This document shows, piece by piece, positions 6,179-11,486 of a stretch of 64,000 nt of DNA. Every line of letters begins with the position of its first letter. The first letter of the stretch is position 1. Position numbers and translations under genes: made by a program. The stretch lies in the NCBI RefSeq assembly GCF_055900595.2, contig NZ_CM148325.1; one strand, written 5' to 3'. A model generated the notes under the pieces. It worked only from the letters and a program-made list of their open reading frames with translations, was not told where the DNA came from and did not search any database.

Positions 6179-7417
6179 TTAATCAGGCTTTGGACAACGT
6201 TGTTCCTTCCAGCTGGCTACCGCCGCAATCCGCCGTCGGGTCAGCTCTTCGCGAATCTCCACACCTTTAAATCCCGCTTCAACGACGGCTTTTGTCGGCA
6301 CTGACTGTGCCACTTCCCAGGCTTCGCGCAACCAGCGGCCTTGCGGGTAGTCCGCTGATTCAAAACCGGTTCTGCCGCGCACATCAGCCTCGCTGGTCAG
6401 CGCCAGTTGCTCGACACGCTGCGGTTTACGCCAGGCGTCGATGGAATCAAATAGTTTGACGATGGTTTTTGGGTTCAGCATTGGGAAGGTGTGGATGAGA
6501 TCGTGAAACTCAGCCACCAGTCTGGCTAAATCGCGAATTTCATTTGGCACGCGCAGACGCTGGCATAGTTGTTCCACTAACTTCACACCCACCGGGCCAT
6601 GACCATGATGACGCGGCCAAAGTTCTGGCGGCGTCAGTCCTTTACCGAGATCGTGGCATAGCGTTGCGAAACGGACATCGACCTGCGGACTTAGCATCGC
6701 CGCCATTGAGAGCGTCATTAAGGTGTGAATACCGGTGTCGATTTCCGGATGCCACTTGGCAGGGGCCGGAACGCCAAACAGGGCGTCAATTTCCGGGAAT
6801 AAAACGCGCAGTGCGCCGCAATCGCGCAGTACCTGGAAGAACACCTGGGGATTGCGGGTAGTGAGGGCGCTTTCCGTCTCTTTCCACACCCGTTCAGGCG
6901 TCAGGTGTTCCAGTTCACCCGCGTGGGTCATCTCGCGCATCAGCGCCAGAGTTTCATCGGCAATACGAAAACCGAGGTGGGCATAACGCGCAGCAAAACG
7001 CGCCACGCGCAGTACGCGTAACGGATCTTCGCCAAAAGCGGGGGAAACATGGCGCAACAGACGATTTTGCAGATCGCCCAGACCGTTGTACGGGTCGATA
7101 ATCTCGCCGTTATCGTCCTGGGCCAGCGCATTAATGGTCAGATCGCGCCGCTTAAGATCATCTTCCAGCGTGACATCCGGTGCGGCATAGCAGGTAAAAC
7201 CGGTGTAACCGGAACCGGATTTCCGTTCGGTACGTGCCAGCGCATACTCTTCATGCGTTTGCGGATGCAGAAAAACAGGAAAATCGCGGCCTACCTGCTG
7301 GTAGCCCGCGTCGAGCATCTCCTGTGGCGTACTACCGACTACCACCCAATCTCTGTCTTTGACCGGTAGCCCTAACAATGCATCCCGAACAGCACCACCG
7401 ACCAGATAAATCTTCAC
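6179..7417 (-). CDS. cca: tRNA nucleotidyltransferase (CCA-adding enzyme) with HD phosphohydrolase domain
   Basis: 412-aa [31 protein letters not shown]...; HD motif (LCHDLGKG). Confidence 0.9.
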
Positions 7418-7480
7418 GCCATCATCCCTTCGTCAAATACACAATTCCTAATAATAAGACAGTGCAACGAAGAAGGCGAT

Positions 7481-8101
7481 TTAGTTCATCCAGCGATCTT
7501 TACGTTTGCGCGTTGGGATCAGGTGCGGCAGTACCAGACCGAGCAGCAAGCCAAGCCCCAGCACGCCGCCACCATACATAAACCACTGCATGATGATGGT
7601 GCGCTGTTTGTCATCCAGCTGCACGCTGGCGGCATCGACCTTTTTCTGCGCGACAATCAGCTCGTTTTTCAGTTTCTGATTTTCTTCTTTTAACCCGTTG
7701 ATCACGCTGTCGCTCTGCGCCACTTTTTGCTGCATTTCTGCGGTGCGCTGATTCCAGGTGTTATCGATATTGGTGAGCTTATCGGTCAGGGTTTTGACCT
7801 GATTTTCCAGATCTGGCACACGGGAGCGCAGGCTTGGCTCTGTGCTAAGTTGTTTCAACGGGATCCAGGCAGTACGGCCAGAGCTGTCTTTCACCTGGGC
7901 ATAATTGGTGTTGGCGTCAGTTTGTAATAAGGTCACTTCCTCGCCGGCGTTAACCGTGCCCACGAGGCGATAATGGTCTCCCGGACCGCTACGGACCCAG
8001 GTATTCAGTTCGTCAGAAACATAGCGCGTTTCTTCAGCGTGTGAGACGGCAGTGGCGCTAAGCGCGAGTAAAGTTAATCCGATCAGGCGTAATTTTGGCA
8101 T
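7481..8101 (-). CDS. ygiM: SH3-domain signal-transduction protein YgiM (HtrG)
   Basis: 206-aa ORF with signal peptide, coiled-coil segment and C-terminal TM helix. Confidence 0.8.
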   Translation of the reverse strand: MPKLRLIGLTLLALSATAVSHAEETRYVSDELNTWVRSGPGDHYRLVGTVNAGEEVTLLQTDANTNYAQVKDSSGRTAWIPLKQLSTEPSLRSRVPDLENQVKTLTDKLTNIDNTWNQRTAEMQQKVAQSDSVINGLKEENQKLKNELIVAQKKVDAASVQLDDKQRTIIMQWFMYGGGVLGLGLLLGLVLPHLIPTRKRKDRWMN

Positions 8102-8443
8102 CAGGCTGTCGTTATTGTCATGGAAAGTGGAACGATAGTAGTGGCATCAGTGTCGCTACGCAAAGCATTCGACATCAATCGGAATCCTCTGTGTCAGGTC
8201 TTGCCACTGCTTCAAACTTTTACGCCCGTCAAATTGCCCGTTGCATGGCAATTTGGCGCAAAATACTATCTACTGACAAAAAAGATCGCATTAAGTTCGC
8301 CGTTCATCGTCACTTATGTGACATAACCGATAAGTAAAGGCCTTGACATCCTCCCCCACCTTCGCGCAAAGCGACTCAGGAGGGGGATTCCCTTGTCAGG
8401 GTAGCAATACGTTGCCGCATTGCCCGGTTCCTCGCTCGACGGC

Positions 8444-9649
8444 TTACGCCGCCTTACGGGCGCGTCCTTTACGGACTGACGGCAATATTTGTCCTGCCGC
8501 CATGACTTCAAAACCTGCTGTTAATATATTGCGAGCGCCGTTTACATCGGCGTTTGCCGTATAGCCGCACGCGGTACAGATAAAGCTCGCCTGCGTCCTG
8601 CGGTTATTTTTCGATGTATGCCCACAACATGCGCATTTCTGACTGGTGTACGCCGGATTAATCGCCAGCACATCACCGCCGCGCCATGCCTGCTTATATT
8701 CGAGCTGGCGGCGCATTTCTGCCCAGCCCTGATCCAGTATCGCCCGGTTAAGACCTGATTTTGCCGCGACGTTGCGCCCCGGCTGGTCTACCGTACCCGC
8801 TGCTGATTTTGACATGTTCGAAACCTTTAAATCCTCAATGACTATCATCGCGTGGTTTTTGCTGATCGTCGTCGTGGTTTTATGAAGGTAATCGCGGCGG
8901 ATGTTTGCGATATGAGAGTGGAAACGGGAAATCTTCGCTTTCTGCTTTTTCCAGTTGGCGGAGAATTTAACCATCCGGGCCAGACGGCGCTGTAAGCGAG
9001 CCAGCTTATCCTGATTTTTTTTAAAGCTGTTTACCGGTTCAAAGACCGTGCCGTCTGAAAGTGTTGCCAGCTTTGTTATACCTGCATCCAGGCCTATTGC
9101 GCTGGTCGATGCGTGAATCGGATCGGTAACAGCTAATTCGACCTGAAAAGACACATACCAGTGTCCGGCATGCTGGCTGATGGTGCAATTTTTAATGACG
9201 CCTTCAATCTTCCGGGACTGACGAAATTTAACCCAGCCCAGTCCTGACGAGAGTTTCACACGGCCATAATCCAGCCCACAATATTTGCTGAAATTGACGA
9301 ACCGGATAGAGTCGCAGCCTTTGGTTTTCTTTTTGAAAACGGGCTTTTCAGCCGTCAGGGATTTATCAAAACAGCGATCCCATGCGCTCCGCAGGTCTTT
9401 CAGTTTCTGCTGGAGGTTGTCAGTGTAACCCTCAGCAAGAAAGGCCAGCTCAGGGAGTTTTTTCCAGCCCGTAAGTCGTTTATTCAGGTCGAAAGCTGAC
9501 GGAATTTTTCCGCCCGCGTCATGAATGCTCAGTGTTTCATTCAGTGCATAGTTCCAGACAAAGCGAGCGCAACCGCACAACTGACGCAACCTTTGCGCCT
9601 GCTGGTCAGTGGGGTAGAGCCTGTATTTATATGCTTTCTGGATTAACAT
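8444..9649 (-). CDS. tnpB: TnpB (OrfB) RuvC-like putative RNA-guided endonuclease of IS200/IS605 family
   Basis: 401-aa ORF; RuvC-I (AIGLDAGI), RuvC-II (IVIEDLKV), zinc finger CACCGH...CTACGY, RuvC-III (NADVNGARNI) all present. Confidence 0.9.
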   Translation of the reverse strand: MLIQKAYKYRLYPTDQQAQRLRQLCGCARFVWNYALNETLSIHDAGGKIPSAFDLNKRLTGWKKLPELAFLAEGYTDNLQQKLKDLRSAWDRCFDKSLTAEKPVFKKKTKGCDSIRFVNFSKYCGLDYGRVKLSSGLGWVKFRQSRKIEGVIKNCTISQHAGHWYVSFQVELAVTDPIHASTSAIGLDAGITKLATLSDGTVFEPVNSFKKNQDKLARLQRRLARMVKFSANWKKQKAKISRFHSHIANIRRDYLHKTTTTISKNHAMIVIEDLKVSNMSKSAAGTVDQPGRNVAAKSGLNRAILDQGWAEMRRQLEYKQAWRGGDVLAINPAYTSQKCACCGHTSKNNRRTQASFICTACGYTANADVNGARNILTAGFEVMAAGQILPSVRKGRARKAA

Positions 9650-9661
9650 TTTGCATTCAGT

Positions 9662-10114
9662 ATGTGGTTATTTAGAATGTACAATATATCCACATTTTTT
9701 TGGGAGGATCAATACGTGTGCGAAATCAATCGTTCACGCTATTCAGCTTACCTGTTGCATGTTCACGTTGTTTTTATGACAAAATACCGCCGTCCAGTTT
9801 TTGGTGAATTGCATCATGCAAACATGCGTCAGTATGTAGCGGAGGTATGCGCGGACTTTGGCGCCGAGTTAAAGGAATGTGACGGCGAGGCAGATCATGT
9901 TCACATGCTGATTGAATACCCACCGTTGGTGCAACTCACAAAGCTGGTAAACAGCCTTAAGTCCGTTACCAGTAGGCGGCTGCGGAATGATTTTATTGAT
10001 TTGCGCGCCGCGTATTCAAAGCCCGTACTCTGGTCACGCTCTTATTTCATCGGTTCATGTGGTGGAGCACCGCTGGAAGTTGTGAAAAAGTATATTCAGA
10101 ATCAGCGTGGCTGA
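9662..10114 (+). CDS. tnpA: IS200/IS605-family Y1 (HUH) transposase TnpA
   Basis: 150-aa ORF; HVHML (HuH) motif and C-terminal catalytic Tyr region (SYFIGSCGG); true start may be internal to the track ORF. Confidence 0.82.
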   Translation: MWLFRMYNISTFFWEDQYVCEINRSRYSAYLLHVHVVFMTKYRRPVFGELHHANMRQYVAEVCADFGAELKECDGEADHVHMLIEYPPLVQLTKLVNSLKSVTSRRLRNDFIDLRAAYSKPVLWSRSYFIGSCGGAPLEVVKKYIQNQRG

Positions 10115-10184
10115 TAAACTGCGGGCTTAACAGCCCAAATTCCCCTCCCGCCTACGTTGGGGGGGAGTACCCAGTGGAGGAAGG

Positions 10185-11486
10185 ATGGCTCAGGAAATCG
10201 AATTAAAGTTTATTGTTAATCACAGTGCCGTTGAGGCGTTGCGTGACCATCTCAATACGCTGGGCGGCGAGCACCATGACCCCGTGCAGTTGCTGAATAT
10301 TTACTACGAAACGCTGGATAACTGGCTGCGTGGGCACGACATGGGCTTACGTATCCGTGGCGAAAACGGTCGCTATGAGATGACCATGAAAGTTGCAGGA
10401 AGAGTGACAGGCGGCTTACACCAGCGCCCGGAATATAACGTGGCTTTGAGCGAACCGACGCTCGACCTGGCGCAGTTACCGACGGAAGTCTGGCCGAACG
10501 GCGAATTGCCTGCCGATCTCGCTTCCCGCGTACAACCGCTGTTCAGCACCGATTTTTATCGCGAAAAGTGGCTGGTAGAGGTCGATGGTAGCCAAATTGA
10601 AATCGCTCTCGACCAGGGGGAAGTGAAAGCGGGGGAATTTGCTGAGCCTATCTGCGAGCTTGAACTGGAACTGCTTAGCGGCGACACGCGCGCCGTGCTG
10701 AAACTGGCGAACCAACTGGTATCGCAAACCGGATTACGTCAGGGCAGCCTGAGCAAAGCCGCGCGCGGCTATCATCTGGCGCAGGGCAATCCCGCGCGTG
10801 AAATCAAACCGACCACCATTTTGCATGTTGCGGCAAAAGCCGATGTGGAACAGGGGCTGGAAGCGGCGCTCGAGCTGGCGTTAGCGCAATGGCAGTATCA
10901 TGAAGAACTGTGGGTCCGCGGCAACGATGCGGCGAAAGAGCAAGTGCTGGCTGCCATTGGCCTGGTCCGTCATACGCTGATGCTGTTCGGTGGCATTGTG
11001 CCGCGTAAAGCGAGCACTCACTTACGTGACCTGCTGACTCAATGCGAAGCGACCATCGCATCTGCGGTGTCTGCCGTAACGGCGGTCTACTCTACCGAAA
11101 CGGCGATGGCGAAGCTGGCGTTGACCGAATGGCTGGTAAGCAAAGCCTGGCAGCCGTTTTTAGATGCCAAAGCGCAGGGCAAAATCAGCGATTCTTTCAA
11201 ACGCTTTGCCGATATCCATCTTTCCCGCCATGCCGCTGAACTGAAAAGCGTTTTCTGCCAGCCATTAGGCGATCGCTACCGTGACCAATTGCCGCGCCTG
11301 ACGCGTGACATTGACTCAATATTGTTGCTGGCGGGTTACTACGATCCTCTCGTCGCGCAAGCCTGGCTGGAGAACTGGCAGGGACTGCGTCATGCCATTG
11401 CGACCGGGCAACGCATTGAAATTGAACATTTCCGTAATGAGGCAAACAATCAGGAACCGTTCTGGTTGCACAGCGGAAAACGTTAA
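10185..11486 (+). CDS. ygiF: inorganic triphosphatase (CYTH + CHAD domains) YgiF
   Basis: 433-aa [14 protein letters not shown]... (CYTH EXEXK motif); immediately upstream of glnE. Confidence 0.88.

Follow-up and report, generated by a model that had tools for sequence, protein, structure and literature searches.

The insertion sequence IS608 of Helicobacter pylori encodes a Y1/HUH transposase, TnpA, has no terminal inverted repeats, carries subterminal hairpins on one strand and inserts without duplicating its target. Its left cleavage site (CL), TTAC, lies in the flank, 19 nt from the foot of the left hairpin, and is complementary to four nucleotides 5′ of that foot, the guide tetranucleotide (GL) AAAG; on the right, cleavage takes place 10 nt from the hairpin foot and the terminus is TCAA (PMC3201880). 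ISDra2 of Deinococcus radiodurans, in which the transposon-associated motif (TAM) is TTGAT, is the reference for the second protein of such elements, the RNA-guided endonuclease TnpB. According to the established mechanism of TnpB (PMC8612924; summarised in PMC11870625), the guide of the TnpB-bound omega-RNA is copied from the flank beyond the right end (RE) of the transposon. In Escherichia coli, the closest named system to the one described below is ISEc41 (ISfinder; IS605 group), together with enterobacterial relatives such as IS609. Here we describe a 1,842 bp segment, at positions 8343-10184 of a window of 64,000 nucleotides (the whole stretch of DNA analysed; RefSeq assembly GCF_055900595.2, contig NZ_CM148325.1). 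Set between the genes ygiM and ygiF, it is very probably a complete insertion sequence of the ISEc41 type, in an apparently functional copy.

The family of this element is already catalogued and its genes are correctly annotated in RefSeq; the identification is correct and already known. The additions made here are the exact ends, the CCAT target and predicted TAM, an omega-RNA model and a corrected tnpA start. In the literature, we found ISEc41 mentioned incidentally, in resistance and plasmid surveys, and found no functional study of it.

Ends, target and family of the element

The initial annotation had recognised an IS200/IS605 element between ygiM and ygiF and had proposed, as a check, alignment with an E. 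coli genome devoid of the insertion. In this comparison the sites read ...GTAAAGGCC|[insert]|ATGGCTCAGG; the target is not duplicated, and the ends, which the initial annotation had left unresolved, are now fixed. Family and location are supported as first proposed. The limits originally given, 8330 and 10175, are corrected to 8343 and 10184. Seven plasmid-borne relatives, from Citrobacter, Klebsiella, Shigella, E. coli and Arsenophonus, are 70-77% identical to the window element over its whole length, and their homology to it ends at the same two boundary positions. The order of the genes and both ends are shared by these relatives, as are the CCAT target and the TGTCAA terminus.

The active, ‘top’ strand is the minus strand, which is the sense strand of tnpB. 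On this strand, the element starts after a flanking 5′-CCAT and terminates with ...GATGTCAA. There are no terminal inverted repeats, and each end carries a subterminal imperfect palindrome, the two having the same polarity on one strand. The left end (LE, 10115-10184, minus strand) was defined from its sequence, its DNA fold and the alignment of relatives. It contains a hairpin, the left imperfect palindrome (IPL), at 10145-10167, of the form CTCCCCCC-loop-GGCGGGAG with one C:C mismatch. GL, which reads GGTA, occupies 10168-10171, and 17 nt separate the cleavage site from the hairpin foot, on its 5′ side. In the right end (8343-8443, minus strand), for which fold and covariation in relatives were used and which also makes up the 3′ part of the predicted omega-RNA scaffold, the right imperfect palindrome (IPR) lies at 8352-8387 (CCCCCTCC...GGTGGGGG, inner stem 8364-8375). 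The right cleavage site, TCAA (TTGA on the plus strand), is at 8343-8346, 10 nt 3′ of the hairpin foot. Both hairpins display, on the minus strand, a C-rich 5′ arm and a G-rich 3′ arm.

This anatomy is that of IS608 in several respects: the right spacing of 10 nt and the TCAA terminus are the same, and the left cleavage site is in the flank, at a similar distance from the hairpin foot (19 nt in IS608, 17 nt here). As judged from the sequence, GGTA can pair with CCAT at 4/4 positions, in the register of AAAG and TTAC in IS608. The two elements differ by the target (TTAC versus CCAT) and by the orientation of tnpA and tnpB, which are co-directional in IS608 and divergent here; the hairpin sequences are unrelated.

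The CCAT tetranucleotide, at 10185-10188 on the minus strand (ATGG on the plus strand, where it includes the start codon of ygiF), is found in the empty site as well and is therefore target sequence rather than part of the element. Among the 19 related copies at loci where a left end was found, the left flank was CCAT in 18 and CTAT in one, and CCAT is therefore the predicted target and TAM. At the other extremity, every copy compared terminates, on the minus strand, with ...GAAGGTGGGGGAGGATGTCAA|, the TGTCAA terminus being shared. The terminal 20-mer was found unchanged in 73 loci of a collection of species-representative genomes, whose carriers include Photorhabdus, Pantoea, Aeromonas, Pseudomonas, Comamonadaceae and a K. 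pneumoniae chromosome. We rejected the plus strand as the active one: flanks on the ygiM side vary (AGGCC versus CAAAAT, etc.), while on the minus strand CCAT and TGTCAA do not change from copy to copy. A second LE-like motif near window position 1424 was also discarded, as a chance match with two mismatches inside a terminator-like hairpin.

One feature of the left hairpin sets the E. coli chromosomal copy apart: the C:C mismatch, at 10160-10167, is a G:C pair in all plasmid-borne and other relatives examined. As for the 20-mer, about 30 identical copies are present in a single draft genome, that of Vreelandella rituensis TQ8S (L058-L084), many of them at contig ends, a sign that a related element, or its miniature derivatives, multiplied there in a recent burst. 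This proteobacterial 20-mer was also found in the Firmicute Paenibacillus alkalitolerans (L042) and in an archaeal metagenome-assembled genome of Methanomassiliicoccaceae (L055). The latter was rejected as a true element, the sequence upstream being unlike the omega-RNA scaffold, and it is a chance or contaminant match.

The Y1/HUH transposase, the architecture of the ends and the insertion without duplication are all found here, and by these sequence features the element belongs to the IS605 group (tnpA plus tnpB) of the IS200/IS605 family. RefSeq and other public sources name the exact TnpA ‘IS200/IS605-like element ISEc41 family transposase’. Since the label comes from an NCBI naming rule and not from the ISfinder reference sequence, the element may be ISEc41 itself or an isoform.

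The tnpA and tnpB genes

On NF033573, the ‘IS200/IS605 family transposase’ equivalog, TnpA scored 139.5 bits (cut-off 55), and it aligned with the IS608 transposase (2a6m) with an E-value of 2e-20. In this alignment H79-V-H81 stands opposite the HIH of IS608, and Y144 opposite the tyrosine of VKQYIENQ (numbering of a 150-residue protein). The Y1/HUH transposase announced in the initial annotation from an HVHML motif and a C-terminal tyrosine is thus corroborated.

The 150-residue form, which starts at 9662, corresponds to the longest open reading frame (ORF) and is the one retained in RefSeq. In all seven relatives, conservation of TnpA begins 1-4 residues before an EINRSR or KINRSR motif, at a GTG or an ATG, and in several of them this codon is preceded by a Shine-Dalgarno sequence of the GGAG type. 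The equivalent start in the window is the GTG at 9716, 8 nt downstream of GGGAGG. Judging from this conservation and from the Shine-Dalgarno sequence, the true start of tnpA is most likely GTG 9716, so that the gene would span 9716-10114 on the plus strand and encode 132 residues, a form already present in public databases (P0019). The RefSeq start is probably 18 codons too long. It follows that tnpB and tnpA are most likely separated by 66 bp (9650-9715). The distance of 12 bp initially reported arose because the longest tnpA frame was taken, as RefSeq also does; the divergent, back-to-back arrangement itself stands. This interval is a putative divergent control region (no strand assigned), in which a consensus scan detected sigma-70-like sites facing tnpA at 9650-9678 (plus strand) and facing tnpB at 9712-9683 (minus strand); these are consensus matches, not proof of function.

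The tnpB gene (8444-9649, minus strand) encodes a protein of 401 residues that scored 356 bits on the NCBIfam model NF040570, ‘RNA-guided endonuclease TnpB’ (cut-off 100), and contains the Pfam domains HTH_OrfB_IS605, OrfB_IS605 and Cas12f1-like_TNB. Its residues 2-379 align with the ISDra2 TnpB structures 8h1j and 8bf8 (E-value 7e-47), a full-length homology. Three acidic residues, D188 (GLDAG), E272 (VIEDL) and D368 (NADVN), share columns with those of the ISDra2 motifs GVDVG, TEHL and HDRDEN, and the CxxC pairs, also found in ISDra2 TnpB, are at C339/C342 and C358/C361. The WED/REC/RuvC/TNB architecture is therefore present with its D-E-D triad and zinc finger intact, in agreement with the RuvC-I/II/III residues and zinc finger first noticed in the 401-residue product. 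In contrast to ISDra2 TnpB, the window protein has a 15-residue insertion after E272, that is, after RuvC-II. This insertion is kept in five relatives with 71-82% amino-acid identity, and is therefore a family trait, not damage. Both genes are free of frameshifts and internal stops, and the three signs that would have spoken against the initial annotation, namely a frameshift, a disrupted RuvC motif or a different transposase family, are all absent. Its phrase ‘candidate programmable nuclease’ fits essentially any intact TnpB, and nuclease activity is a prediction here.

The RuvC and TNB core is common to this TnpB and to Cas12f and other type V nucleases, and PDB matches to Cas12f were obtained. 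The NCBIfam matches to Cas12f2 and C2c8 were sub-threshold, and all Cas12 models were far under their cut-offs. Type V systems differ moreover from the element in that the latter has no CRISPR array and no cas genes, its guide coming from the transposon end.

The C-terminus of the window TnpB (...GRARKAA, residues ~378-401) and the 5′ segment of the omega-RNA (window 8425-8470) are unlike those of most relatives, in which the tnpB frame continues through a conserved GCCTGTGGAG...GAAGCAGGAACC block. Only one Klebsiella plasmid type (L007/L008) shares both with the window. From the sequences compared, it looks as if a 3′ module had been exchanged between members of the family.

Predicted omega-RNA and guide, and a proposed mechanism

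The stop codon of tnpB, at 8444-8446, is followed by 101 nt of non-coding sequence up to the element end. Folded as RNA together with its flank, the right-end region was more stable than shuffled sequences (z = -2.8). A plain MAFFT alignment of 21 right ends analysed with RNAalifold gave 11 pairs only, the variable stems being misaligned, and was replaced by an alignment of 15 distinct relatives anchored on invariant blocks. In the consensus fold of the anchored alignment, 95% of the cells were standard pairs and 10 of the 33 pairs showed compensatory double changes. When the 3′ partners were slid by 1-3 columns as a control, 37-49% of the cells were paired, with 2-4 compensatory pairs. Covariation was strongest in stem B (8403-8424), next to which stem C occupies 8390-8401. 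Since stem B belongs neither to the ORF nor to the hairpin bound by TnpA, its covariation points to a structured RNA, the omega-RNA scaffold. We read the non-coding region 3′ of tnpB as this predicted scaffold. ISDra2 resembles this layout: there too, the 3′ end of tnpB and the right end code for a structured RNA, and the guide that follows (predicted here) derives from the flank. It differs in having its scaffold inside the ORF; in the window element, most of the scaffold comes after the stop codon.

The predicted guide is 16 nt long, 5′-GGCCTTTACTTATCGG, and lies outside the element, at 8327-8342 on the minus strand, in the flank on the ygiM side. CCAT followed by GGCCTTTACTTATCGG matches the empty-site genome alone and is found neither in the filled allele nor in the remnant allele described below. 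By analogy with the described systems, this is the arrangement expected if TnpB were to cut the donor joint left by excision. In the literature we found no TAM for an E. coli TnpB of the ISEc type, and the characterised TnpBs that were checked use T-rich motifs, e.g. TTGAT or TTAC.

A transposition cycle can be proposed from the IS608/ISDra2 paradigm and from the anatomy seen here. TnpA would bind the two subterminal hairpins on the minus strand, and cut on the 3′ side of both the flanking CCAT and the TCAA terminus. The element would then travel as a single-stranded circle and insert 3′ of another CCAT, without target duplication. TnpB would be loaded with an omega-RNA made of the non-coding region past the tnpB stop and of the right end, the 3′ tail of which would run into the ygiM-side flank. 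Excision would join CCAT to this flank and so remake the TAM and its target; cutting of the remade site by TnpB would lead to recombination with the sister chromosome, and restore the element. This excision and homing model follows Karvelis 2021 (PMC8612924), and Meers 2023 as summarised in PMC11870625.

Transposed to this locus, the model leads to a reading that we put forward tentatively and regard as rather improbable when taken as a whole. TnpB would be an active homing nuclease with an unusual, non-T-rich TAM, 5′-CCAT, and its omega-RNA would be permanently aimed at the empty ygiM/ygiF allele, that is, at about 97% of E. coli. This would lock the element at its site in carrier lineages such as CFT073 and Nissle 1917, while LE would give ygiF its ribosome-binding site and tnpA read-through would provide its transcription.

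Distribution, stability and effect on the host locus

The ygiM gene is at 7481-8101 on the minus strand and ygiF (433 residues) at 10185-11486 on the plus strand, its start codon adjoining the element. The insertion lies directly 5′ of the ygiF ATG and displaces the native upstream region by 1.8 kb; the sequence before the ATG, TAAAGGCC, is replaced by the element's own GGAGGAAGG. We infer that ygiF is transcribed by read-through from tnpA. Because CCAT reads ATGG on the other strand, and because the complement of LE reads GGAGGAAAAG, we considered that targeting of start codons with donation of a Shine-Dalgarno sequence could be a habit of the family. This was rejected: of 17 flanks, only that of the window copy opens a long ORF, ygiF, the others giving ORFs of 1-77 codons.

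The distribution of the element was investigated by megablast against 5,426 complete E. coli genomes. The ygiM-ygiF region was found in all of them, and the insert was present at the exact site in 146, among which CFT073, Nissle 1917, ATCC 25922 and ABU 83972. The median was one place per genome, and full-length copies were at least 99.4% identical. All junction-confirmed copies were at ygiM/ygiF, and the junction query accounted for all but two of the 148 full-length copies.

In ten more complete E. coli genomes, this site is occupied by a remnant of 63 bp (L003 1201-1263 in E. coli RM14723, corresponding to the window junction 8342|10185). What is left of the element is bases 1-45 and, directly attached to them, the final 18 bases; a TCCCCC shared by the two ends marks the point where the first 18 nt of LE meet the RE hairpin. 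From the sequence of this joint, the remnant is an internal deletion between the end hairpins and not the product of TnpA excision. The remnant has preserved the left cleavage site and GL, one of the hairpins and the terminal TCAA, as in mini-derivatives of the type of miniature inverted-repeat (MITE) or palindrome-associated (PATE) transposable elements, and it splits the predicted TnpB target.

The occupation of a single site fits equally an inactive copy inherited vertically and retention enforced by TnpB. The former would make the element an immobile relic that no longer transposes in E. coli, with intact ORFs and with TnpB and the omega-RNA perhaps still produced; we hold this to be possible, though doubtful. 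One nearly invariant copy per genome, always at ygiM/ygiF over 146 genomes, is what such a relic would give, as are the C:C mismatch that relatives lack and the ten genomes in which the interior was lost by deletion between the hairpins instead of precise excision. However, divergent strains have all kept the ORFs and their catalytic residues, the two hairpins and the two cleavage sites, in which neutral decay would be expected to cause disruptions, and homing by TnpB would itself produce a stable single-site pattern. Recruitment of TnpB for a host role, for instance as an RNA-guided regulator of the TldR type, could also be imagined for a copy that is fixed and single in its lineage and placed at a gene start. 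It is very unlikely, because TldR-type regulators are described as nuclease-dead derivatives (PMC10705468), whereas the RuvC triad and the zinc finger are intact in the window TnpB; tnpA and both transposon ends are kept, and, as in mobile copies, the guide region is nothing other than flanking DNA. Least probable by far, to the point of being negligible, is that the ORFs belong to another family, IS607 or IS1341, or arose by chance. TnpB proteins do occur in IS607 and IS1341 elements, and the IS607_TnpB model matched the window protein, at a sub-threshold 168 bits (cut-off 350). But the adjoining transposase is a Y1/HUH enzyme above the IS200/IS605 equivalog cut-off and not a serine recombinase, the ends match IS608, and E-values of 1e-41 to 1e-106 exclude chance ORFs.

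We retain a complete, apparently functional ISEc41-type element, while several observations weigh against it. The activities of TnpA, TnpB and the omega-RNA are predictions from sequence. The C:C mismatch of the left hairpin could weaken TnpA binding, and it may help to explain the single site of the element. No second insertion site was seen among junction-confirmed E. coli copies (146 genomes, two of 148 copies being unplaced), hence no direct sign of recent transposition. As to the omega-RNA, the fold was predicted on the same alignment that served to count the pairs, which favours the fold, and a scan of 7400-11000 against Rfam at E <= 1 matched no family. Finally, the divergent TnpB C-terminus and 5′ omega-RNA region are paralleled in the Klebsiella L007/L008 type alone.

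Some of the plasmids examined hold related elements in other arrangements. In the E. coli plasmid pA123_1 (L004 3001-3950), a ~79%-identical relative is internally deleted, a tnpB without its N-terminus being fused to a partial tnpA; its neighbours are umuDC on one side and, on the other, a type IV CRISPR array with csf2. Another plasmid (L005) contains several nested or tandem TnpB elements. Among the Klebsiella plasmids, L007/L008 and L009 carry clearly different elements that agree in the right-end flank (GTAGCTGAACATTTCCAGGAA...) but not in the left-end one; in L009, another tnpB follows directly downstream. Such a layout points to insertions in tandem or nested in one another, or to the reuse of one site by different members of the family.

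The discovery itself carries little weight, as the biology follows the IS608/ISDra2 paradigm. In carrier strains, the insertion has rearranged the region upstream of ygiF, from which this gene, and possibly glnE downstream of it, is expressed. For the family, a TnpB native to E. coli, present in the probiotic Nissle 1917 and in the reference strains CFT073 and ATCC 25922, now has exact ends, a CCAT target and predicted TAM, and an omega-RNA scaffold supported by covariation. Such a native TnpB could be tried directly as a compact editor with a predicted non-T-rich TAM.

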